A stretch of DNA of 63,416 nt, filler included, from Reclinomonas americana ATCC 50394 (taxonomy: Eukaryota), in NCBI GenBank assembly GCA_048213135.1. It is 11 parts of 4 records of this genome, joined end to end, with 100 filler letters (N's around TTAATTAATTAA, not from the genome) between each part and the next. Parts side by side here need not be neighbours in the genome. Positions count along the whole stretch, not along the records: positions 41,320 to 45,804 come from PS015766.1; positions 45,905 to 52,733 come from PS015767.1; 9 more parts are not named here. One strand, given 5' to 3'. Positions 41,320 through 60,641 of this stretch are shown here, piece after piece. Position 1 is the first letter of the stretch. Every line of letters begins with the position of its first letter. The notes below the pieces were generated by a model. The model was given only the letters and a program-made list of their open reading frames with translations, was not told the origin of the DNA and made no database searches. Made by a program: the position numbers and the translations under genes.

Positions 41320-43828
41320 GAGTGGCGGCAGCGTGTCGGCACAGAATGGTGTGACTGGCGCGACTGTGAGCGCTTCTGGCCAGGTGTCTGGCGGCAGCGT
41401 GAGCTCGTCTGGCACTGTGTCTGGTGGCCTTGTGAGCGGCGGCAATGTGACGTCGTCTGGCTACGTGTACGGTGCGTCGGTCAGCACTGCTGGTGGTGTC
41501 AGTGGCGGCAGCGTGTCGGCACAGAATGGTGTTACTGGCGCGACTGTGAGCGCTTCTGGCCAGGTGTCTGGCGGCAGCGTGAGCTCGTCTGGCACTGTGT
41601 CTGGCGGCCTTGTGAGCGGCGGCAACGTGACGTCTTCTGGCTACGTGTACGGTGCGTCGGTGAGCACTTCTGGTGGCGTGACTGGCGGCAGCGTGAGCGC
41701 TTCTGGCCAGGTGGCTGGCGGCAGTGTCAGCACTTCTGGCAGTGTTTCGGCTGGCGGTGCCATTACTGGCGCGTNNNNNNNNNNNNNNNNNNNNNNNNNN
41801 NNNNNNNNNNNNNNNNNNNNNNNNNNNNNNNNNNNNNNNNNNNNNNNNNNNNNNNNNNNNNNNNNNNNNNNNNNNNNNNACGTGTACGGCGCGACGATCA
41901 GCACCTCTGGCGGCGTCAATGGCGGCAGCGTGTCGGCACAGAATGGCGTGACTGGCGCGACTGTGAGCGCTTCTGGCCAGGTGTCTGGCGGCAGCGTGAG
42001 CTCGTCTGGCACTGTTTCTGGCGGCCTTGTGAGCGGCGGCAACGTGACTTCGTCGGGCTACGTGTACGGTGCGTCGGTGAGCACTGCTGGTGGTGTGACT
42101 GGCGGCAGTGTTAGCGCGTCTGGTGGCGTGAACGGCGGCAGCGTGAGCTCGTCTGGCACTGTGTCTGGTGGCCTGATTAGCGGCGGCAATGTGACGTCGT
42201 CGGGCTACGTGTACGGTGCGTCGGTCAGCACTTCTGGTGGTGTGACTGGTGGCAACGTGAGCGCGTCTGGTGCCGTGAATGGTGGCAGCGTGAGCTCGTC
42301 TGGCACTGTGTCTGGTGGCCTGATTAGCGGCAGCAATGTGACGTCGTCGGGCTACGTGTACGGTGCGTCGGTGAGCACTGCTGGTGGTGTAACTGGTGGC
42401 AACGTGAGCGCGTCTGGTGCCGTGAATGGCGGCAGCGTGAGCTCGTCTGGCACTGTGTCTGGTGGCCTGATTAGCGGCAGCAATGTGACGTCGTCGGGCT
42501 ACGTGTACGGTGCGACGATCAGCACTTCTGGCGGTGTCAATGGCGGCAGTGTTGGCGCCTCGGGTGGCGTGACTGGCGCGACTGTTAGTGCGTCTGGCCA
42601 GGTGGCTGGCGGCAGTTTCAGCACTGGCGGCGACATCTACGCCGGCGGAGTCATTACGGGTGGCAGTTTGACCACCACCGGCAGCATCAAGGGCGGCTCA
42701 ATTAGCGCGTCTGGTGCCCTCACTGGTGGTTCGATCAGCTCGTCTGGCCTTGTGAGCGGCGGCAGTTTGAGCACGTCTGGTTCGTTCAAGTCCAGCTCTG
42801 TCAGCGCTTCTGGCGCTATCTGGGGCAACAGCTTTAGCACCGCCGGCGACATTATTGCTGGTGGTGTGATTACCGGCGGCTCTCTGACGACTTCTGGTAC
42901 CCTGAGCGCCCCGCTGATCAGCACTGCTGGTCTCATTTCGGCCGGCTCGTTCTCGACCACTGGCTCTGTGTTTGCGTTCAGTGTGGTAGCCCCGCCTGGC
43001 ATGGGTGGCAACGTGTCGCCGTTCCCATCAGTCGGCGCCACCAATGGCCGCTACAACGGCTTCTTCAACGTTGTCAACGCGAACTCCATTACGACTCCTA
43101 GCGTCAACGCCACCACCGGTGTCACCACTGCTGGTCTCACTGTGAACAACACGGCCGACATCCAGACTCTGAAGGTCAAGCAGGTGGCGAGCTTTATGCA
43201 GACGGCGTCGTTCACTGGCGACGTGTCGATGATGGCCGACCTGACGGTTTATCAGACCTTGACGGCGGACACGTTGGTGGTGCAGACTGCGATTTTCGAC
43301 AAGCTGGCCGCCAATCTGGCCTCCATCCGCAGCCTGGCCGTTCCTCTGACGCAAGTTGTCATGCAGCAGACTACGGAGACTCCGTATACGCTGTTCGGCA
43401 GTCTGGTGTACCCGACGTCGTACCTGCGCGTGGTTGCCGACGCCGCCACCGACGTGTACACGATGGACATTTTGCACCCGAGCATTGGCGAGCAAGAGGG
43501 CTTCACCTATGTCGTGCGCAACGAGGATCAGCAGGCGTCTGTGCGCATTTCTGTGGATCCTTCCCTCCTCAACAATCCGTGCGGCGACGACTGCCGCTAC
43601 TTGGCCTTCACTGTGCCACCTCGCACGACAGCCACGTATGTGTTTGTTTTGTGCAAGGCTGCACCGGCGTCGAATGCTGAGGCCGACTACACGAGCACTG
43701 CTTGTGCTTCGGGCCTGGACGGCGACACTTATCCAGACGTCGGCTACTGGGTGCTTCTCCAGAGCACGCCGATCAGTGCATCGGATCCGGTCAACCCGGG
43801 ACCATCTGATTCCACCGCTCAGCAGTAG
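41320..43828 (+). CDS. Intronless Gly/Ser/Val 11-residue repeat protein with globular C-terminal domain (5'-partial)
   Basis: Open frame of more than 800 aa; unit GxxVSxxGxVx with higher-order 49- and 60-aa repeats; TAG at 43826-28. Confidence 0.75.
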
Positions 43829-44015: not shown

Positions 44016-44565
44016 TCACATGAAATGCTTCGACAGCTGCGGTCCCGTTTGCCTTGCATAATGCGAGTCGCCTTTCAGAGCGTAGAGCATGGAAGTCGGG
44101 CGGTCGAGTCGCTCAAAGACCATGCGGCAGATTGGTTGACGATGTCGCACAATGAGATCGTCTTCGTAGGCTCTGACTTCAAGCACGCATGTCGTACCGC
44201 GCGCTGGTTCGGTGCACGATGAGCTGCTGTGCATCAGCAGTTCGCAAACAGAGGCACATGTCGATAACGTACCACCCTTGTCAGAGCTCCAGCCACCGCC
44301 AGAGCCAAAAAAGCCAGCGTAGTGCGCACGAAATTCACCAGTGGTTGAGTCGTGCGCTAGCATTTCGCATCCGTAATCGGGCGGAACGCAGAGCAGCTCG
44401 TACGTGTTGAATATGTAAAATCTCTGTTCGGCCAACCGTCGTAAGCCACGTGTGGGAGTAACATTTGCACCACAATATATAGTACACGTACGCCTTTCTC
44501 GAGCCACAAGAAGCCTTCGACCTTTGTGATTCAAGTCAGCAACTCCTGAGGATACATATGCGCGT

Positions 44566-44619
<54 letters not shown>

Positions 44620-45778
44620 GACCGNNNNNNNNNNNNNNNNNNNNTGCTGCCTTTCAGAGACACGGACAGACAGACAATGCACTGTTGCGCACCACACACC
44701 TTGATCAAGGTCCATGGTCAGCATCAGACCATTGTCGATGAGCACCGACTCCAGAGGCAGAGCCTCGTGGGTCTTGGTATATAGCAGAGCACCCTCCGAC
44801 GTGTACAGGTCTTGCAGCTCTGTGGTTGTCAACACGTCACGTGTGCCAAAAAACATTACTTGGTTCAGGCTGAGTCCTGTGTCGTGGCGATGTCTTCGGT
44901 GCTTCGGGAGATGGTAATAAAATGGTACGGGCGAGTCAAACCTGCCACCACAACGACGTCAAAGCTGTTGCTTGTCACTTGGCACCACACATCGCCTTCG
45001 TAGCCTGGTGGAATCTTGTCGTACCGGCTGGAGTAATCGCAGATGCACCGAGTGTTCACGTCTGCAGCAAGGCAACGCAGTGAGCTGCGAGGAGCACGCA
45101 ACTGACGGTTGACAACAGCAACGATGTACCTGCGCGACCAGTACTGCTTTTGGAGTTCGTGTATGCAGTCATGCCAGCCGGAAGCTTGAACCTCTGCTCT
45201 AGTCTAACCAGGTACACAGTGTTGCGCTCCAGCACCGTTGGCGTGCTCAAGTCGATCACTGCACGCATTGTGAGGAACGGCTTCGGCGGTGTGAATGCAA
45301 GCAAACAGCACATCATGTTGTAATCGACGCAACATGGTCCCCGTCGAAACTTGTCCAGCAGCTCAGCCACCGTCTCGGATTGCAGCGGCAGAATGCAACC
45401 AGGAAGTTTGCATGCTAATACACACACACACACACACATGCAGCTCATTAGCGACAGCCACCTCTGTCGACGTCCCTCTTTCGGGGAGAGCGCACCTTCG
45501 CTGCTGAGAGTGAGATCCAGCGATGCCGGTTGCAAATGCTCGATTCTCACAGACTCGTCTGCATTGCAGATGAGCTGGCCTTGTGCCATCATCTCTTTCA
45601 TGCTGTAGAGAAGTGCGCGGTTAGGGGGGTGGTGGTGGGGGTGGTCCTACAATCACAGACAGACAGATGAACTCAACGTGTCGTGCGACAGTGCGCCGCG
45701 TACCGCCGGCTCCGCCGACGGCACACGCCTGTGCCTCGACTGCACAGACAGCGATTCTCCACTCGCAGACGACGCCAT
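44016..45778 (-). CDS. Multi-exon two-domain dCTP deaminase, bacterial type (copy 1)
   Basis: Spliced: GALSHDT|MKEM, QPASLDLTL, NSKSSTGR, DKIPPGYEG, GEFRAHYAGFF, VLEVR, LSKHF; GT-AG introns. Confidence 0.8.
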
Positions 45779-45913
45779 TTGTACACTTGTTCACTTTTCT
45801 CACANNNNNNNNNNNNNNNNNNNNNNNNNNNNNNNNNNNNNNNNNNNNTTAATTAATTAANNNNNNNNNNNNNNNNNNNNNNNNNNNNNNNNNNNNNNNN
45901 NNNNCCAACGGTC

Positions 45914-48288
45914 TCATGTGCGCGGCGGGACCACGGGCTTGAAATGTTTCGACAACTTCGGCCCGCTCTGATCGGCGTCTGCATACAACACACAGAGCTC
46001 AGCACACGATGAAGAAGCACATGTATGCTATAGGCGAATCGAGGACGCAACAGTTGCTGCCAGTAGCCGTCGAGTACGGTCGCGAGGTTGTCCGGTCAAG
46101 CCGTTCGTATACCATGCGACAAATCGGCTGGCCCGCTGCTGTGAGAGTCTCGGCGCCCATGTAAACAAGTGCAATGTGCGTACCTGGCGATGTCTGACGA
46201 TCATATCGTCCTCTGACACACAAAAACAAATGAACGCTTGTCAGATCGAAATTACCCTCGCTGCGAGCTTGCAGGCGCCGCAGCGCCGCATCTCACCGAA
46301 TGCCCGAACTTCCAGCACCCCCGGTGTGCCCATCTCTGCGGCACCGAGAAAAGCACGTGTAAGTGCTATGTGCGCAACGATTCACAAAAGCACGAGAGTC
46401 ATCGCACAACTTCCCGATTCTCGGACTCCGAAGCCCGGATCAAAAAAGCTGCAGTTCGACATGAGCTCAGCTCACGCTTACTTTCGTGCGTGCACTTGAG
46501 CAGCGCACTCACACCCACCCTGCATAGTGCGCACGAAATTCGCCAGAGGTGCTGTCGTACGGTACCATTTCGCTGGCATGCAGCAGATGTGAGTCAAGCG
46601 GCAATTAAAGTCGACACTTTGCTGTCGTGGAGCAACCACTAACCACGCCAAGTCGTGCGGCTGCAATGAAGGTTGCGTGTCACACTAAGCACCCAAGTAG
46701 AAATGACAAGGAGGCTGTGGGGTAGCGTACCACGACAATGCATTCAGACGTGCAGAATATGTAGAGAGAGCCCCGTTGCAGCCAGAGGAAACCGTTCTTC
46801 TGCATGCAATCGGTGACAGACAGGAACGTGAAGTGAGAGGATATGCGAACGTGAAGCAACACATACAGCCGCACGAAACAGGGCGGGGAATTGGGTCGAA
46901 GAAATCATCGGCGTCGTGCGCTGCCACCTGTCAATGTGTCAGCGAGAAAAACGACGCGATGCGCCTGCGAAATGCGTTTCACCATGGTCAAGTCCAGTTC
47001 CTTGAACGTCTTCTTGGCCACAAAGCCGACAATGTCTGCCAGTGTGTCAACGTTGCACTGTGCGTGAGACGTTTTCGACCACGACAAAGCACCCCACCCA
47101 TCCATCCACCCACTCACCTTGGTCCAAATCAATGGTGAGTAGCAGCCCATCATCCATCCAGACATCGTCCAGTGGCACCGGTACGTGTTCTCTAGTGTAC
47201 ACCAGCGGCTGTGCGGCGTACAGAGAGCGCAACTCCTCCTGTCGCAACACCTGCAGTGCATCCACCGGTACTTAGTCGCCAAAAGAGCGCACGAGGCATA
47301 GGCGAGAGGCGACCATGTATAACTTGTCGCTCGCCGTAGAAGATTGCCTGGTTGAGACTGAGGCCTGCAGTGACCACACAGTTGAGTACAGTGTGAGCAG
47401 CCGACGCAGCGTCGAGGTGCACATGCAACCTTCTTGCACCACACAGTTGAACGTGTTGGCCGTGAGTTGTACCCACACATCGCCCTCGTAGCCAGCGGGG
47501 AGCTTGTCGTAGCGCGGGGTGCGATCACACATGGATCGCGTGGTGACATCTGCAACGTGTGAGCACCGGCAGAGTGAGTTCTGCCTTCTCTTTGCGCGGC
47601 GGACACCGTACCGACTCGGCCGGTTGAACTCTTGGCATTGGTGTAAGCGGCGATGCCCGGCGGCAGTCGGAAGCGTTCACGAAGGCGAACAATGTACAAC
47701 ACTCCGCGATCGAGGATAGTGGGCTGCGAAATGTCGATGCCTGGCGCGCCGCTATTCGTCAAGTCACCGAGATGGCAAGGGGGGCCGACGACACAGGGCG
47801 ACGCAACGTGGACCACGTTTGAACTGCGTCAACAGCTCGGCAATGGTCTCGGTCTGCAGTGGCAAGATCGAACCGGGCAACTGCGAAGCACACGCAGGTA
47901 AGGACATTCGGTGACGCCCGTCATGCGCACGTAGCTCGAGGCGAAGAAGTGAACCTTGTATGCTGCACACGCGTACACGGGCGATGAGGGAATAGATCGA
48001 TGCGATCAATAACACCGCGATCAAACTGACCTTCGTCGGCGAGTGTGAGATCAAGCGAAGCCGGTTGTATCTGCTCGTCGTCGAATGGTGGTGCACGCGA
48101 CGATGCAGAGGGTGCACTGCTGACAAGCCAGCCATCGTGGATCAACGCACGCATTCTTCGCACACACATACACACACACGCACACACACAAGAGTTCACT
48201 TGTCAGCATGCATCATGTGACTGCGCGACTCGTGTGCACGCCTCACGAAACGTGTCGTAGGAGAGAGTGCCGTGTTGTGGTACCAACG
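45914..48288 (-). CDS. Multi-exon two-domain dCTP deaminase (copy 2; 5' end in gap)
   Basis: GTLSYDT|MRAL, IQPASLDLTL, NAKSSTGR, GEFRAHYAG|FFDPGFG, GVLEVRAF, GSNY..GPKLSKHF. Confidence 0.8.
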
Positions 48289-48609
48289 NNNNNNNNNNNN
48301 NNNNNNNNNNNNNNNNNNNNNNNNNNNNNNNNNNNNNNNNNNNNNNNNNNNNNNNNNNNNNNNNNNNNNNNNNNNNNNNNNNNNNNNNNNNNNNNNNNNN
48401 NNNNNNNNNNNNNNNNNNNNNNNNNNNNNNNNNNNNNNNNNNNNNNNNNNNNNNNNNNNNNNNNNNNNNNNNNNNNNNNNNNNNNNNNNNNNNNNNNNNN
48501 NNNNNNNNNNNNNNNNNNNNNNNNNNNNNNNNNNNNNNNNNNNNNNNNNNNNNNNNNNNNNNNNNNNNNNNNNNNNNNNNNNNNNNNNNNNNNNNNNNNN
48601 NNNNNNNNN

Positions 48610-49617
48610 AGAGTCCAGCACAGAGTCGAGCACCGGCGACATGGGTGAGCGATCCAGCCACGCCTCAATCGCCGATCGCTCGTACGTGACACTGCGATGC
48701 GCGCGAGCGATGTATTTGTGAGCGGAGAAGAGATGCACGGACACATATGCATGCACACAGGCGCGCATACCCGTCCGCAGCAATGACCGGATCGTCCATG
48801 ACCGACAACGAAATGGGGCACTTGAACTCGTCGGGTGCGCCTGCATCGTCGTCACCGGCATCGTCATCATCGCCATCGCCGCCACTGTAGACGCCACCCG
48901 ACCCTATGCACACTTCACGTGAGCCCCTTCCATCCAACACTAACAACACCACAAGAATGACACAAGAAGCCGCGCGCCGAGACACACACCATGCACGCCC
49001 GACCCACTCGCACCACTGCCACTCGCGCTTCCGCCACCCCAGGCCGACACCTCTCGCGGAATCACCCTGCCACCGCCGCCCCCACTATGCGCACTTTTCG
49101 CCTTGGCGAGGAGCCAGGCCTGAATGCGCACACGCAGATCCTCATTGGGTATCAACTCGTTGCTCTCCAACGCCAGCCCCGTCACCACCGGCGAGAACGG
49201 CGAGCGCTCCAGCCACGCCGCAATCGACGAGCGCTCATAAGTCACTCTGACATCAACACGACATGATGAGACGGAGTCACGCTGCTGCCAGTCCTCAGCA
49301 CTCGCGCACACACGCACCCATCACACGCAATGACCGGATCGTCCATCACCGACAGCGAGATGGGGCACTTGAAATCCTCCGGTGCATCCGCCTCCTCATC
49401 GTAGCCCTCTGCACCCACCCCCCACTGTGAGACTTCACACTCTCACACTCGCACGCACACTCAGCTCACCCCAATCAAGCGACGCGACATGATGCGCGCC
49501 CGACGACGATGAACCCGATCCCGATCCCGATGCCTCTCCGTCTGCGCACATACACGTAGAGTGAGAGCAGCACACGCACATGCACTCTCCACCACCAGAC
49601 ACGCAACATCGCGACAT
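48610..49617 (-). CDS. Tandem U-box protein (two U-boxes; 3' end in gap)
   Basis: APEDFKCPISLSVMDDPVIACDG|VTYERSSIAAWL...LIPNEDLR and APDEFKCPISLSVMDDPVIAADG|VTYERSAIEAWL. Confidence 0.88.
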
Positions 49618-50662: not shown

Positions 50663-52733
50663 TCATTCATCTCCATCGTCGTCGTCGTCTTCGGCACCCT
50701 CCACTGGAATGTTGACGTGGAACAGGCGAATTCCGGTTTGGTCGAACAGCGATCGTGAGGTGGCCATGGTCGACACGCAAATCTGCGGGGGGCAATGAGC
50801 ATGTCACACGAGGGCAGATGTGTGAGACAGATGTAACGCACCTGGCCCCAGATGTACGCCGTCAGCCAGCTGCTGAGGCTGGGGTGTCGCACATTCGGGA
50901 ACACCATCAGCGGGTGCGGCACCGGCAGCGCACCGACCAGTGTTGTGGATCGGAGAAATTCAAGCACATCGGTCTCTTGCATCATTCTGCGTGCGACACG
51001 GCGGCGGGTTAACAGGCAAGAACAAGATTAGGCGGGCAAGAAGAAGGCGCGCACGAACCGCCCACTGCTGAGGCGCTCCAGCTTTTGCGACAGGGCCTGA
51101 ATGAGCAGCAGGATTGTCTTGAGCTTGGGCGAGAGAACGCCACGAGCCTCGGCGAGCCAGGCGCCATCGGGTGCGAACGGCTGCCCCGGAGAACGCGCAG
51201 CCGCCGGTGGTGATGCTGGTGCAGCAGACGACCCAGACGCTCCCTCGTTGGGGCCAAGCACTTGCTGCAGCACCGTGTCCAGCAACTCATCGACAACCTC
51301 GCGCCGAGCTGCCTCCTCCACGTCTGCCTCGCCGTCGTCGGCCACGGACGCCGCCACAGACTCGCCAACTGTGGCCGCCACAGAGACGCCAGACACGGAC
51401 TGCGGACTGAGCGCCGATGGCGACATGGTTGGTGATCGTGGCGGAGGTGGTGGCGACGGTGAGGCAGCACCGGCAGCTGCTGTGGACGACGCGCCCGCAC
51501 TGTCCACCTGCTCACCATACAAGGCTCTGCGTGCCACGGCCTCGGTGTGTGCCAGAAAATCACTTGCAACACCACCCGTGCCCGCGGTCATGCTGCGTGC
51601 GCGAGCCGGGAACGGTGGTTAAGTATCACGAAAAAAAACAGCAACCAATAAAGCCGGGGACCACTACGCAACGATGGGTCGCCGTACTCGAGGTACTTGG
51701 CGAGGTCAAAGAACACAGACGGGTTGATCATGATTTGGTGAGTGAGTGGCACTGTGCCCCCGTACTGGTACTGCACGCAGTTGACAAAGGCCAGCAGCAC
51801 GAAGTCGGCATACTGGTAGTTGTAGTAGCCGCCCTCGAGCACTCGGCGTGACGTGACGCGCTTCAACAAGGACATGAGAGAGGCGGCAGTGGTGGCCGAC
51901 ATGTTGGTGAGGAAGGGCGACATGTTGGCCAGTGTCTTGAACAGTTGTGGGAAGGTCAGCGTGATCAGTGCGTCGCCGGTGGTGATCAGATGCTGCAACG
52001 CCAGGATCACGAAATCCGCGTGGGAGCCGTCGCGGAAGTACGGAATGCCAGTCGGCAACTTCAAACCGACAAACAGCTGGTGACACAAGGAGATGGTGAA
52101 CTCGCGGTCACAGCTGAGCGTGTGCAGCACCAACGCTCCGTTCTGCACGAGGCCGTAGCGGTTGCCGTCCTCGTTGCGGATGGTCAGCATGAGACACAGC
52201 AGAGGGTACACCAGCTCGCCTGAGGCAAGACACCATGGTGTCAGGAGGAGGACGGCAGGCACGACACATTCGAATCTATACAAACACACACCAATGTCAC
52301 GACGCGATGCCAGGTGCGCCCTGAAGCCGGCGTTCGTCTCAATCAGCAGGTACAAGAAGACCACCACCTCGTGATGGAACGAAAAGTCACGCTGCGAGTG
52401 CGGCAAGTAGGTGTTGTTGACGGTCAGCTTGTCCTTCAGCAGTTGCACGAGGCCGACAAACACGGCCTCAAAGTCGTCGTCGCTCGCAATGTGCTCTCGC
52501 GCAAAGTCCAAGTAAATATTCCTGCACCCGCGCGCGCACACACACACACACACAGTCAGGCATGTGTGGTGTGAAAACTCGCGCCACTTTCTTCTCTGAC
52601 CTCCCGGGTACAGCCGCCGCCGCACTCTCGTTGCCGGCATTCTTGTAGTCCAGGAACACATCGAGAATCTGCGTGACCGGTGACGTGTGAGCGACGGCAT
52701 CACACAGAAAAAAGAAACACACAAGGTCGCAGC
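50663..52733 (-). CDS. HID1: HID1/dymeclin-family protein (5'-partial)
   Basis: LSCDREF, GSHADFVI, LANMSPF, LKTILLLIQAL, TLVGALPVPHP, WLTAYIWG. Confidence 0.85.
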
Positions 52734-52832
52734 NNNNNNNNNNNNNNNNNNNNNNNNNNNNNNNNNNNNNNNNNNNNTTAATTAATTAANNNNNNNNNNN
52801 NNNNNNNNNNNNNNNNNNNNNNNNNNNNNNNN

Positions 52833-55800
52833 NGTGTGCGCGCGTGATCTCATCTGTGAATCGTGCAGTCCGGTGGAGGGACCACTGTGTGGCGCGGTGT
52901 TTGTGGTGCCCACCGAGGCCAGCAATCACAAGGGATTGCCGCACACACTGGAGCACTTGAGTTGCGTGCTGTTCTTCTCCTGTGGAGCTCTCTCCCGTTG
53001 TCTGACTGACTGACTGCGAGCGCGCGTGTGAGCAGTCTTCATGGGCAGCAAGAAGCATCCTCATCGAGGTTATCTCGACAACCTGGCGGTGCTTTGCGGC
53101 ACGTCGGGCACCAATGCGTGGACTGCGGAGGACCACACGGCGTACACGATATACACGGCTGGCGCTGATGGTCTGCTCTCTCTCCTGTCTCTTTTCTCTC
53201 TTGAGCCCTGGATCTCACCACCCTCCGTCGACTGTGTGGCAGGCCTGCTGACCATTACGCCAGTGTTCCTCGACCATGTGTTGAACCCGGTGCTCAGCGA
53301 TCAGGCGTTCACCACGGAGGTGTATCATGTCGACGGAGAGGGCCGACAGCAGGGTGTGGTGTTTTGCGAGATGGAGGGACGGTGTGTGCTGTGCGCCTGC
53401 GTCTCCGGAGAAGAGATATCTGATGATGTGCTTTGTCAGCGAGAACACGGAGGACGACCTGCATGAGAACGCGTTGCGCCAGTTGCTGTACCCGAACACC
53501 GGCTACGCCTTCGACACTGGCGGCCTCACGCCCAGCATTGCAACGCTCTCGAACGAGGAGATTCGCGAGTATCATCGGCGCTTCTATCGCCCCGCGAACC
53601 TCTCCATCATTGTGTTGGGTGCGGTGCCGCTTGATGCGTTCTTTGAGTGTCTGTCGACGGTGGACTTTGAGAGCAGCGCGCAGCGGTGCGTCAGCCCCCC
53701 TGTGCATTTCTTGTGGCGTGGCGACTCATTTTTATCGTCGACGAAAAGCAGATCGGCGAGCGACGACTCGGCCGGCAACCCCGGTGTGGCTGCGGCGTGG
53801 AGCGCACCCATCCCACCGGTGGTGCTGCCGCATGTAGGGTCGCCAGTAGAGTGTCATTTTCCGTCGCAAGGTCACTCGCCACAATCGCGATCACTTTTAC
53901 GCACACCATGCTCATGAAACGCGTTGTGTCTGCTGCAGACGAGGAAGTGGGATCGGTGACGTTTGCGTGGCCGGGTCCTCCGCTGCACGACTTGGCCACG
54001 CAGATGGCTCTCGAGTGCATGCTGTGGTATCTGGAGGACACGTCTGCGAGCCCACTCCGACAGGAGTTTGTGGAGTGTGCGAGTCCAATCGCCAACGATG
54101 TGTCGTGGCACGTATTCGAGTATCCGCAGACCGCATTCAGTGTGTCGTTCAGGTTTGTTCCTTTCTTGTTTGTGGTGGATGGTATGCGCTTTCTCTTTTC
54201 GGTCTAGCTCACTCGTAATGCAGCGGTGTGCGCACCGGCAAGTGTGGCGATGACATTGACTCAAGTCGCGCGAGCGACTGTGAGAGTGACGAAGATGGTT
54301 CTGACGAGGGTGGTGGTGGCGCAATGTCGGAGGATGACGTCACGCTGGAATCGTACCTGTTGCGTCCACGGCCATGCGTAGCGTGCGTTTCTTCGATTGA
54401 TGACACGTTGGTGCCGCACAGCGAGGGGCAGCGGCTGTACGAACGCTTTGCGGCTGTGCTACGCCGAGTCCGCGACGAGGGTTTCCCCGACGGCGTCATG
54501 GCCAAGGCTGTCAGTCGCCTTCGGTGTGTGTTGGAGGTTGCACGCACGCATGCATACTCGCTCCACGTTTCCTGATGTTTCGTTCTGGTGCCTCAGCATC
54601 AAGCACCTGGAGTCGATGGAAAAGAGCCCGTTCTCCTCGGCCACCGATATTCTCCTCCCGGAGTTGATCTTCCCCGACGACGTGACCACTCCCAGTTTCG
54701 TCGTCGATTGTCGTTTCCCTCACCACCCTCGAGTGAGAGAAGGATCTCTCATGCGTCCTGCATTTCCCGCAGTCGGCACTCGCATGGCGAGTGTGGTGGA
54801 ACTGTTGGACGACCTCGAGCACCGGCCGAGCTCGTTCTGGGTGAACTTTTTGGAGACCTGGTTCCTGTCGACTCCGGTACGTGTCTGCGTGCCGCAATCC
54901 CTTTGACTCTCTGTATTCTCATCCCGTGTGGAGCAGCATCAACTAAAGATGATTCCCGACGCTCGGCGCGCGCGCACACTCGAGGAGCACACTGCGGAGC
55001 AGGACACTGAGCGGCGAAGTGCTCTTGGTGCGCTGTCTCGCTTGTGGATGTTCTCCTCCTCTCTCTCTCTTATGCATTCCGTGCCTGGCGCAGGTCCGGA
55101 TGGATTGACGGCATGCGCCGAGCGAGTGCGCGAGGCACTGGAGCACAACCGACCGCGCCTCGATTCCTCTGACCTGGAGCGTATTCACTCCCAAGCCGAC
55201 CGGCGCGCTCATCCCGTGTCGGAACTCCCTTCACGCGTGCAGGTATGGATCATGCATTTCTCGCTGTCTCTTTTGCGCGTGAACCGCTCCGCTGACTCGT
55301 GCGGTGCAGATGATCGAGGATCCAGCCAGGGCACCATTCCCGATCCAGGCAGTGGCTCTCGGCACCACACAATTCGTGCATGCGCGCATGCTGTTCCATC
55401 TCGGTGATCTGCCCGACCATCTGCGTCCGTTGCGCACTCTGCATTCTCTCGTCGACCTGCTGCACTTGTGTTGATCGTTGTCGTTGTCGTTGTTGTCGCA
55501 TGACCACCACGCAGAGCTCTGGTTCTCTTCCAGGAGTTGTTCATGGCCTGCGATTTGCGCGATGCCGATGGCGTGATGCTGCCGTACACTGACGCTGTGC
55601 GCCAGTTGGCACAAGACGTTGCGGTGTATTGCCTTGCGTGCGTGTTTCGATTCCGCTGACTTGAAGTATTTGGGTTCGAATAGACGGTTGCACAATCATG
55701 CTCTGTCGGTCAGGGTGGTGGCACGTTTGGGTGCACGCATTTTGGTGAAGTGCTTTTCATGTACTTTACAGCCGAACCCCGCAAGTGCGTGCTCCTGCTC

Positions 55801-59011: not shown

Positions 59012-60641
59012 ATGTGAGCGCAGCCAGCCCTTCTCTCTGCCTCGTTGTGTATGCATCTCACCCTCCCTTCCCCATGCAGGCAACACGACGAGGTCGTATG
59101 GCAAGTCATTAACAATGGCTTCTGCTCATTCAAAGTCAAGTTGCGTGTCACTCTCTCGCTCTGTGTGTGCATGCTTGCAGAGAGACGGACAGAGCAAGTG
59201 GAGACGAGATGCATGCATGCTAGTGTGTTAACGAGCGAGATTGCACGCGGAGAGGGCGTTTGGTTGTTGCACGTGCACATGCACATGCACACCTGCACAT
59301 GGCCGACCCTGACCCTTCACTCTCTTTCTTTGTGCAGAACGACGACGCAGAACTTTTGTCGCAACAAGTTCAACTTGACTGGTCTCTGCAATCGCCAGTC
59401 GTGCCCGCTGGCCAACAGCAGATATGCGACCATTCGTGAGGAGCGCGGTCAGATTTACTTGTTCATGAAGACGATTGAGCGTGCACACATGCCGGCCAAG
59501 TTGTGGGAGAAGGTCAAGCTGCCGAAGAACTTTACAGAAGCGCTGACGATTGTTGCGTACGGCGGGAGAATGGAAGGGAAATCTGAGCAAGTGGGGGAAG
59601 CAGGAAAGGAGACTGATTTTTCGTGTGTGGTTGCAACAGATCAACCAGAACTTGCGCTACTGGCCCAAGTACATTCGCAACAAGGCCAAGCAGCGCTTTG
59701 TGCGCATCACGCAGTATCTGATCCGCATGCGGCGATTGCGACACAAGATCCAGTTGCGTCGACTCGGGGAGAAGTGCAATGATGCTGCATTTGTCGACTG
59801 ACTTTTTGTGCAGACCAAAGCTCGTGCGCGTGCACAAGAAGGTGGAGAGAAGAGAGGCGCGGCGCGAGGCCAAGGCCGAGGCAGCAGCGCATCTGGAGAA
59901 GGCGATTGAGAAGGAGCTGCTGGAGAGGCTATCGAAGGGCACCTACCCGGAGATTCTGAACTATCCGCGCAAGGCGTACGAGGCCATTCTGGAGAAGGAG
60001 GCCGGGAAGCAGCTGGGTCGCGTCGGTGAAGAAGACGACGACGATGGCGAGGACGAGAGTGAGTTGGAGACGGAGGATGAGTCGGTGTTGGAGGACGGGG
60101 ATGAAGATGATGAGGAGGAGGAGGTGGAGGAGGACGACGAGGAGGAATACGTGGTCGACGAGGATGACCTGTCCGACATGGAAGACTGTTGCGTTTGGTG
60201 GCGATGCTCTGCGAGCGTGTACTGCAGGCACTCATGCATTGTTCGTGGCAGTCGATGTGGAAAAGGAGCTGGAGGAGTACTCGGAGGAGGACTCGGATCT
60301 GGAAGGCAGAAGCAGTGACGAGGATGGAGACAGCGACGACAGTGATGTGGGAGACAGCGATGACGAGGATGGTGATGATGACGATGACGACGATGGCGCA
60401 CCACCTAGGAAACGCGCCAAGACCGGTGCGGCGGGCGGTAAGAAGGGCAAGGCCGCGCCGCCACCCAAGAAGCCAATCGCACGCAAACGTTGCGTCCCAC
60501 TCGCCTGTGTTTTCCCTTGATTCCACGTGTTTTTCACACATGTATCCATCTACAGGTCGTCCGCACATTGAGATCGAGTACGAGCACGAGCCTGCCACCT
60601 CCACCCAGACATCAGCAGGCCGCGGCGGATCACGGCGCTAA
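59012..60641 (+). CDS. MAK16: Ribosome biogenesis protein MAK16, six introns
   Basis: [56 protein letters not shown], acidic tail, RPHIEIEYE. Introns 59014-79, 59140-337, 59552-639, 59753-813, 60188-251, 60489-555. Confidence 0.95.

Follow-up and report, generated by a model that had tools for sequence, protein, structure and literature searches.

Two genes of the eukaryote Reclinomonas americana ATCC 50394 (assembly GCA_048213135.1), predicted to be spliced, encode paralogous two-domain proteins of the dUTPase fold that belong to a family annotated as dCTP deaminase (DCD), with the Pfam domains DCD_N and DCD_C and the architecture of NCBIfam NF005734. We consider it probable, at roughly three chances in four, that the pair are nuclear genes of bacterial origin which gained introns and were then duplicated, and that one of them (copy 2) is the likely enzyme while the other (copy 1) has been altered. 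According to this reading, the gene would have passed from a bacterium of, or near, a Planctomycetota-type subfamily into a GC-rich, intron-rich eukaryote, spliceosomal introns would have been acquired after the transfer, and duplication would have followed; the copies would since have diverged to their present 58 % identity, with further gain or loss of introns. The window analysed is the whole stretch of 63,416 nucleotides, joined from 11 parts of 4 records of the assembly, and both genes lie on its minus strand.

Results

All five motifs named in an earlier sequence-only reading of this DNA were found in the spliced genes, KSSTGR, EFRAHYAGFF, VLEVR and LSKHF being present in both copies, and Pfam DCD_N (PF06559) and DCD_C (PF22569) were identified in both. 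When twelve exon-bearing open reading frames were compared with the two Pfam models, six scored above the cut-off, two matched below threshold and four had no match. For DCD_N (cut-off 21.4) the scores were 53.7 and 32.8 bits with copy 1 frames and 38.4 and 30.4 bits with copy 2 frames, and for DCD_C (cut-off 22) they were 94.2 bits with copy 1 and 30.0 bits with one copy 2 exon. Against a family profile of 424 positions, made from 239 homologues, the spliced model of copy 2 scored 493.9 bits over positions 26-390, and that of copy 1 404.6 bits over positions 20-238 and 269-388, the break coinciding with an assembly gap. Both values are within the range of the family members themselves (5th percentile 391 bits, median 507.5 bits). 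With NF005734 only single exons were scored, giving 87.7, 40.1 and 40.8 bits against an equivalog cut-off of 283 that applies to the whole protein. The model of the single-domain enzyme, TIGR02274 (cut-off 92.8), gave 20.2 bits with the C-terminal exon of copy 1 and 40-52 bits with full two-domain homologues.

The bacterial character that had been ascribed to the family was borne out within the collections searched: all 99 matches of the homologue search contained both DCD_N and DCD_C, the 80 named genome loci recovered were bacterial without exception, and the DCD_C clusters in the atlas were bacterial as well. The solved two-domain relative, PDB 2R9Q, matches a close homologue (E 2.7e-71). 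The two-domain family is a dCTP deaminase by annotation, and no published activity test of it was found in the literature on PF06559 and 2R9Q. Judged by their titles, the papers under 2R9Q deal with docking benchmarks, TRP channels and an equation of state.

Copy 1 (44016..45778) was modelled by enumerating junctions against five bacterial homologues. The model has nine exons (45778-45678, 45602-45496, 45414-45334, 45258-45130, 45061-44942, 44876-44698, 44521-44492, 44423-44273 and 44203-44016), encodes 361 amino acids and ends in a stop codon at 44016-44018. Its frame is open and all eight predicted introns are GT..AG. In the spliced model QPASLDL is found at 45512-45532, KSSTGR at 45134-45151, EFRAHYAGFF at 44307-44336, VLEVR at 44172-44186 and LSKHF at 44022-44036. 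An in-frame phase-1 intron of 69 nt (44204..44272, GT..AG) sits inside the last long open reading frame; it is the best-scoring junction there, its excision gives a loop of the same length as in the bacterial proteins, and copy 2 has an intron of the same phase within one residue of this position. The interval 44522..44697 was modelled as one intron of 176 nt; within it are a (CA)n run and, at 44625-44644, an N20 gap. About 30 profile positions (239-268) are absent from copy 1 exactly at this gap beside the microsatellite. The equivalent interval of copy 2 holds two small exons (47035-46983 and 46927-46880). The acceptor of copy 1 at 44521 corresponds in position and phase to that of copy 2 at 46799, and if the donor of the gap interval were placed two bases further upstream, at a GT, it would fit the phase-1 donor of copy 2.

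Copy 2 (45914..48286) was modelled with 18 exons encoding at least 383 amino acids, the 5' end including the start being cut by an N gap (48289..48609). Its exons are 48286-48252 (cut by the gap), 48155-48031, 47962-47955, 47880-47808, 47740-47612, 47549-47430, 47364-47324, 47250-47118, 47035-46983, 46927-46880, 46799-46731, 46660-46644, 46572-46519, 46448-46411, 46335-46297, 46212-46184, 46127-46052 and 45978-45914, the last including the stop. The 17 predicted introns are GT..AG and of 55-96 nt, corresponding to approximately one intron per 68 coding bases, and the frame is open. The motifs QPASLDL (48047-48067), KSSTGR (47616-47633), VLEVR (46304-46318) and LSKHF (45941-45955) were located in the spliced model. 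Two micro-exons were included because they are needed to keep copy 2 colinear with copy 1 and with the bacterial proteins; both are predictions for which homology is the sole basis. The first, of 8 nt (47955..47962), completes A-Y-K where copy 1 has A-C-K; a canonical model can also be built with the donor at 48014 and no such exon, and it has four residues more than the bacterial proteins. The second, of 17 nt (46644..46660), contributes to PHDLAC, compared to PPDYGC in copy 1. Without it the best joins of the flanking exons used non-canonical acceptors, in a scan that allowed AG as well, and with it the whole model is GT..AG.

Taken over both genes, all 25 introns of the models have GT..AG ends and, apart from the 176 nt interval spanning the gap, measure 55-96 nt. 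Most of the interruptions shift the frame or contain stop codons, and the exon joins of both models are free of insertions and deletions compared to bacterial proteins. The phase-2 intron that had been noticed after G.LS.DT was recovered in both models, at 45677-45603 in copy 1 and 48251-48156 in copy 2. At least six intron positions are common to the copies and of the same phase, to which the two ends of the gap interval can be added, and the introns therefore predate the duplication, in agreement with the order of events proposed earlier. Eight positions of copy 2 are uninterrupted in copy 1, and one position is specific to copy 1. If the gene is of bacterial origin, it follows that all of the approximately 18 intron positions, those delimiting the 8-nt and 17-nt micro-exons included, would postdate the transfer, and the pair would document how introns have been gained and lost in nature. 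Introner-like elements and a residual likeness between homologous introns were also considered. The best normalised scores in the intron similarity search were 0.09-0.17, compared to a maximum of 0.05 with shuffled sequences, and none of the top 12 intron pairs were positional homologues; both ideas were rejected.

Copy 1 and copy 2 are identical in 196 of 337 aligned residues. They group together as closest relatives, with support of 93 in a FastTree phylogeny of 245 rows, 100 in a quick IQ-TREE phylogeny of 65 rows and 99 in a further quick tree. The pair is nested among bacterial sequences. In a surrounding clade of 105 rows (support 97) the members that bear a name number 14 and are without exception bacterial: ten Planctomycetes/Planctomycetota, one Kuenenia, two Myxococcota/Myxococcales and one Spirochaetales MAG. 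Within a clade of 38 rows (SH-aLRT 98) the two window rows stand with 12 rows from Planctomycetota-phylum genomes and 24 unnamed proteins, and a group of 13 rows around the pair (support 87) includes two Planctomycetota-phylum genomes (L182 and L171). Direct grouping of the pair with Planctomycetota rows has a support of only 86-87. The gene was found in 71 of the 301 Planctomycetota-phylum genomes sampled. The trees support the suggestion of horizontal transfer; a donor of the Planctomycetota type appears fairly well placed. That the transfer is old, as had also been suggested, fits the 58 % identity of the copies and the loss of resemblance between homologous introns, which are the sole basis for its age.

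It is also conceivable, but in our view unlikely, that the gene is older in eukaryotes, i.e. that a single deep acquisition, or an organelle ancestor, was followed by patchy retention. The 24 unnamed rows leave room for this, as some unnamed proteins of the surrounding clade could be eukaryotic. One of them, P0109 (133 amino acids), is 68 % identical to an exon of copy 1, shares the stretch GFLWLEKGRFYIF with copy 1 and has a tail resembling read-through into an intron; it has the look of a piece of a gene with introns. Furthermore, single-domain Dcd1 is described from several eukaryotic supergroups (PMC10733785). However, the best full-length relatives of the pair are intronless proteins, with identities of 46.8 % to copy 1 and 54.0 % to copy 2. 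In a metagenome scan that included P0109 as a query, 80 loci were kept, among which the locus of P0109 itself was not found, and the best 14 loci listed for each copy were all single uninterrupted matches with identities of 41-53 %. A mitochondrial origin is further opposed by the alphaproteobacterial rows, which lie far outside the clade of the pair.

The copies differ in the active-site region. FFDPGFG is intact in copy 2 (46427..46447), while copy 1 has FFGSGGG (44292..44312), and the contrast drawn in the sequence-only reading was recovered in the spliced models. Copy 1 has Gly in place of an Asp found in 238 of 239 homologues, Ser in place of a Pro found in 231 and Gly in place of a Phe found in 206, the last position being Phe or Trp in 238, which confirms that copy 1 is altered. 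Profile alignment to the structures 1ogh, 3gf0 and 2hxd was used to map the active site. The Asp of D-P-G-F, which is Gly in copy 1, aligns with the Asp of W-I-D-A-G-F in these structures, KSSTGR aligns with R-S-S-L-G-R, and the Glu of L-E-V-R aligns with a residue that varies among the three (E, Q, A). In the single-domain enzymes we take the Glu to be catalytic and the Asp to lie at the deoxyribose and the dUTPase site. The L-E-V-R Glu is present in all 239 homologues, and the K, S, G and R of the loop in 233-238 of them.

Copy 2 has the complete K-S-S-x-G-R loop, the D-P-G-F Asp and the L-E-V-R Glu, and as every conserved motif residue is kept it is likely to be a working enzyme. At the N-domain position aligned with the catalytic Glu both copies have Gln, compared to Glu in 201 of 239 homologues, and part of the ancestral chemistry may thus be gone from both.

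It could be argued that copy 1 was recently disabled, or is an artefact of assembly without function, in which case damage would account for both the absent segment and the replaced Asp. The replacement of the near-invariant Asp, Pro and Phe and the absence of some 30 profile positions agree with this, as does a longer end branch (0.64, compared to 0.34 for copy 2, in the quick IQ-TREE phylogeny of 65 rows). We nevertheless find it improbable. The frame is open over nine exons with canonical introns throughout, and the missing stretch coincides exactly with an N20 gap by a microsatellite, in an interval that holds two small exons in copy 2. Among the 55 columns conserved at 90 % or more, 52 are kept by copy 1 and 53 by copy 2. 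Of 12 relative-rate tests, 11 assigned the larger number of unique changes to copy 1, but the difference was significant (p < 0.05) in only one, and faster evolution of copy 1 was not accepted as robust. As nearly all conserved columns are kept, the acceleration is not robust and the near-invariant Asp is replaced, the pattern points to a specific change of the active site over decay. An altered nucleotide binding is the most likely consequence for copy 1, with a changed range of substrates or products or a role as a non-catalytic partner. More specifically, copy 1 might be a paralogue with a new function, either an enzyme for another nucleotide (e.g. a ribo- or modified cytidine triphosphate) or a partner that regulates copy 2 and has no catalysis of its own, a proposal we offer tentatively.

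Arrival of the genes by way of a virus, and not directly from a bacterium, seems very improbable. Ten viral contigs carry relatives of the two-domain DCD, and transfer by giant viruses has been proposed for the single-domain Dcd2 (PMC10733785). The seven near-full viral loci (309-374 residues) are, however, only 28-40 % identical, compared to 44-49 % for a Planctomycetota genome; three short partial viral matches (117-146 residues) are 42-45 % identical to the copies.

In the window the two genes adjoin each other across an artificial linker. The copies are on different contigs, joined between the start of copy 1 and the stop of copy 2 by 100 bases (45805..45904) consisting of N44, TTAATTAATTAA and N44. 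This linker occurs ten times in the window, bacterial-to-eukaryotic contig joins being among the occurrences. Bases 1-41219 are bacterial DNA from at least six contigs, with genes for TctB, PrpF, Porin_2, parts of a Liv-type ABC transporter and molybdopterin dehydrogenase. Eukaryotic genes in the window are U-box and Hid1/Dymeclin on the contig of copy 2 and M16 peptidase and Mak16 on later contigs. A search with a Hid1 exon found no match, and Mak16 was 66-79 % identical to proteins of fungi, plants and animals alike, none of them a close relative. An Acanthamoeba-like amoeba, which intron size and GC had suggested as the host, received no support. Despite the bacterial contigs in the same record, bacterial contamination or a chimeric assembly with artefactual introns is contradicted by the sequence to the point of being negligible, since the 25 GT..AG interruptions, mostly incompatible with an uninterrupted frame, restore a full-length, family-colinear frame in two independent genes, the contig of copy 2 carries U-box and Hid1, and the GC content of the DCD contigs (0.58) equals that of the other eukaryotic contigs and not that of the bacterial ones (0.61-0.69). 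The GC3 of the pair is 0.64-0.67, compared to 0.56-0.75 in these eukaryotic open reading frames.

Discussion

The R. americana pair has the architecture of the known two-domain DCD and is colinear with it along the profile. It differs in being eukaryotic, in its 8 and 17 introns, in the Gln that takes the place of the usual N-domain Glu and, in copy 1, in having G-S-G-G-G for D-P-G-F-G. The single-domain, homotrimeric Dcd enzymes (E. coli Dcd, TIGR02274; the M. jannaschii DCD-DUT, 1ogh) belong to the same fold superfamily. They consist of one domain of about 180-200 amino acids, compared to two domains in the pair; each DCD half aligns with them, and corresponding positions are found for the Ser/Arg loop, for the Asp and for the Glu. 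By homology, each protein of the pair would be an internal pseudo-dimer, in which the KSSTGR loop of the N-domain and the D-P-G-F...L-E-V-R segment of the C-domain would form one composite site deaminating dCTP to dUTP. The dUTP would in turn feed thymidylate synthesis.

Prokaryote-like dCTP deaminases are known from other eukaryotes. Dcd1 and Dcd2 of Dictyostelium, found also in many other eukaryotes, are functional, and each of them rescues an E. coli strain in which dcd has been knocked out (PMC10733785). Their best bacterial matches include Planctomycetes and Myxococcota and, like the pair described here, they are bacterial-type, intron-bearing genes in eukaryotic genomes for which gene transfer has been invoked (PMC10733785). 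They are single-domain enzymes, however, with listed bacterial homologue ranges of 519-531 nt and a Dcd1 construct that starts like a classical Dcd; the account of Dcd1 and Dcd2 in PMC10733785 does not treat the two-domain family. With the pair, the pattern of bacterial-type dCTP deaminases in eukaryotes extends to a second enzyme family of distinct structure. The sequence-only reading had started from the premise that eukaryotes normally make dUMP through dCMP deaminase and, as a statement of the sole eukaryotic route, this is too strong because functional single-domain dCTP deaminases have been documented in many eukaryotes (PMC10733785). If copy 2 is active, R. americana would have the bacterial route from dCTP to dUTP beside, or instead of, dCMP deaminase, a route already demonstrated for the single-domain enzymes in social amoebae (PMC10733785).

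Copy 1 is a natural variant without the Asp that nearly all its relatives keep, and could be used to reveal the role of this residue. It also has an N-terminal extension of 26 residues, rich in Ser, Arg and Ala, which might direct the protein to an organelle.

Gene models and family assignment

The window shows a bacterial-type nucleotide-metabolism gene that has settled in a eukaryotic genome, carries introns there and has been duplicated, and this finding is real and well supported. Copy 1 (44016-45778, minus strand) and copy 2 (45914-48286, minus strand) were modelled by enumerating GT/GC..AG junctions between adjacent coding pieces and scoring each join against five bacterial homologues. 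The models have 9 exons and 361 amino acids for copy 1, and 18 exons and at least 383 amino acids for copy 2. Frames are open in both, and the predicted introns are GT..AG in 25 of 25 cases and 55-96 nt long, the single exception being a 176-nt interval with an assembly gap. The sequence-only reading lacked an in-frame 69-nt intron of copy 1 (44272-44204, minus strand) and micro-exons of 8 and 17 nt in the copy 2 model. Its five family motifs were all found in the spliced models, as were the phase-2 intron after G.LS.DT common to both copies and the difference between FFDPGFG (copy 2) and FFGSGGG (copy 1).

A stretch missing from copy 1 coincides with a gap of 20 N's and an adjacent (CA)n run, and copy 2 has two small exons exactly there. 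Direct, in-frame splicing of this region is possible, but exons concealed in the gap are likelier, because the acceptor 3' of the gap agrees with the copy 2 acceptor in position and phase. Copy 1 starts (45697-45778, minus strand) with about 26 Ser/Arg/Ala-rich residues which the bacterial homologues do not have; this extension could be an organelle-targeting peptide.

The exon ORFs of both genes match both halves of the two-domain DCD family, annotated as dCTP deaminase. Six of the 12 exon-bearing ORFs exceeded the Pfam cut-off for DCD_N (PF06559) or DCD_C (PF22569), two were sub-threshold and four had no match; NF005734 (NCBIfam), named on three exons, is the same family. A close homologue matched the structure 2R9Q (E 2.7e-71). 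Against a 424-position profile of 239 homologues, whose family members themselves score 391 (5th percentile) and 507.5 (median), copy 2 reached 493.9 bits over positions 26-390 and copy 1 reached 404.6 bits, split over positions 20-238 and 269-388.

Genomic setting

Ten linkers of 100 bases (N44-TTAATTAATTAA-N44) interrupt the window. Positions 1-41219 comprise at least six linker-joined contigs with intronless bacterial genes, sharing a record with eukaryotic contigs, and 13 of their 25 large ORFs were assigned a Pfam family. These include NADH:flavin oxidoreductase, TctB, PrpF, a FadB-like enzyme, Porin_2, parts of a Liv-type (branched-chain) ABC transporter, a periplasmic binding protein, enoyl-CoA hydratase and molybdopterin dehydrogenase. 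On one bacterial contig (11946-15762, minus strand) an 877-amino-acid AAA_13 protein (E 5.5e-133) adjoins an RNase_T/Exonuclease-C ORF, possibly as a defence-type module.

From 41320 on, the contigs have a eukaryotic character, with a Pfam family in 6 of 46 ORFs: a U-box gene split over two ORFs (48668-49320, minus strand), a Hid1/Dymeclin-type gene (51588-52781, minus strand), an M16 peptidase (53285-54204, plus strand) and Mak16 (59018-60315, plus strand), which has 66-79 % identity whether the protein compared is fungal, plant or animal and so gives no placement of the host. Tail to tail with copy 1 is an intronless ORF encoding at least 836 amino acids (41320-43828, plus strand), which is incomplete at the start of its contig and has Ser/Gly/Val-rich repeats and a non-repetitive C-terminus. 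A Pfam search of it returned no family, and the only Atlas leads, to clusters of hypothetical or tail-fibre-like phage proteins, were weak (score 0.92; recognition 2102, under the 2300 mark).

The record is a mixture of organisms, and gene order over linkers is without weight. The two copies are on separate contigs, each at the extreme contig end and head to tail over a linker. A tandem pair is a plausible candidate arrangement. Contig GC is 0.57-0.60 in the eukaryotic set versus 0.61-0.69 in the bacterial set, and GC3 of the two genes is 0.64-0.67. Bacterial contamination is excluded as the source of both genes by their introns, by copy 2's eukaryotic neighbours and by this GC3.

Relatives and origin

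All 99 matches to the last exon of copy 1 were two-domain DCD proteins (41-55 % identity); the 12 named by organism were from Planctomycetes (9) and Myxococcota/Myxococcales (3). At least 518 stretches in prokaryote species-representative genomes encode a relative, and all 80 kept were bacterial. Identity between the two spliced proteins is 58.2 % (196/337), and their best identities to any fetched full-length protein are 46.8 % (copy 1) and 54.0 % (copy 2). Viral relatives are more distant: seven loci matching most of the protein share 28-40 %, and three short partial matches up to 42-45 %. Of 80 loci kept from the metagenome scan, the 14 best listed for each copy were all uninterrupted matches.

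A full scan of 1.84 billion representative proteins gave 661 at E <= 0.001. The top row, P0100 (2155 amino acids, 18 short stretches), was rejected as a relative; it matches the translated in-frame intron only and is read as a low-complexity artefact. The nearest true match, P0109, is a 133-amino-acid fragment with 68 % identity, having GFLWLEKGRFYIF in common with copy 1. Past R-M-V it continues as unrelated low-complexity sequence resembling gene-caller read-through into an intron; at this site both window copies are without an intron. P0109 may come from another eukaryotic gene of the two-domain DCD family; its own locus was not found in the metagenome scan.

Trees were built from loci of 300-480 and proteins of 320-450 amino acids, excluding P0100. 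With FastTree (245 rows) the pair had support 93 within a clade of 105 rows (97), in which every named member (14) is bacterial. A 70 % identity filter reduced 135 rows to 65, and in a quick IQ-TREE of these the pair had support 100 within a 35-row clade (98). P0109 was omitted from the rooted tree and all later ones. Rooted on named Actinomycetota, Nitrospirota, Acidobacteriota and Pseudomonadota, the quick tree gave the pair 99, within clades of 11 (95) and 27 rows (97). The gene was matched in 71 of 301 genomes from the phylum of one Planctomycetota MAG. Adding genes from this phylum produced a 38-row clade (98), in which 12 rows are from the phylum, 2 are from the window and 24 are unnamed; two genomes of the phylum (L182 and L171) fell inside a 13-row group around the pair, with group support of only 86-87. 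Considering the trees, the distant viral relatives and the uninterrupted metagenome matches, the best reading is therefore that the gene was transferred from a Planctomycetota-type bacterium as candidate origin.

PMC10733785 demonstrates single-domain, prokaryote-like dCTP deaminases in many eukaryotes, with intron-carrying genes, enzymes complementing E. coli and S. pombe mutants, and transfer as the explanation given, the bacterial best matches including Planctomycetes and Myxococcota. The kind of event is already known, and one paralogue is unusual. Unlike those enzymes, the window genes belong to the sister, two-domain family, which sections 3, 8, 10 and 11 of that paper do not mention and for which literature searches on PF06559 and 2R9Q found no functional paper.

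Intron history

Six introns occupy the same position, in the same phase, in both copies, and both ends of the copy 1 gap interval fit two further copy 2 introns. Comparison of the introns of both copies found no likeness left between homologous introns and no repeated intron family. The shared positions and unlike homologous introns therefore place intron gain first, followed by gene duplication and then long divergence. Copy 1 has one private intron and is continuous at eight copy 2 introns, mostly in the 3' half, a bias consistent with intron loss from copy 1 by way of a reverse transcript. Three introns, 45333-45259 in copy 1 and 47807-47741 and 46051-45979 in copy 2, open with an identical run of eight bases (GTTGCGTC). 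In two of these, which occupy homologous positions in the two copies, the ninth base is shared as well; the rest of the intron sequence is unalike.

Proposed active site and the change in copy 1

The family profile was aligned to single-domain dCTP deaminases in both halves. The N-domain KSSTGR aligns with their R-S-S-L-G-R loop, and the Asp of the C-domain D-P-G-F with that of W-I-D-A-G-F. The L-E-V-R Glu falls on a position reading E, Q or A in 1ogh, 3gf0 and 2hxd, which we take to be the catalytic Glu, the Q and A entries presumably being active-site mutants. The C-domain Glu is kept in 239/239 homologues, the D-P-G-F Asp in 238/239 and the loop K, S, G and R in 233-238/239; the equivalent N-domain Glu occurs in only 201/239 and is Q in both window copies. 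Because the C-domain residues and the loop are near-invariant and the N-domain Glu is less kept, one main site would be formed, to which the N-domain contributes its loop and the C-domain its Asp/Glu motif.

Copy 2 retains the loop residues and the C-domain Asp and Glu. In copy 1, D, P and F are replaced by G, S and G. Of 55 columns conserved at 90 % or more, copy 1 keeps 52 and copy 2 keeps 53, and a rate excess in copy 1 was not robust (p < 0.05 in 1 of 12 relative-rate tests). As the conserved columns are kept and the rate excess is not robust, copy 1 would be better explained by a directed alteration of its nucleotide pocket, or by a role as partner, than by decay.
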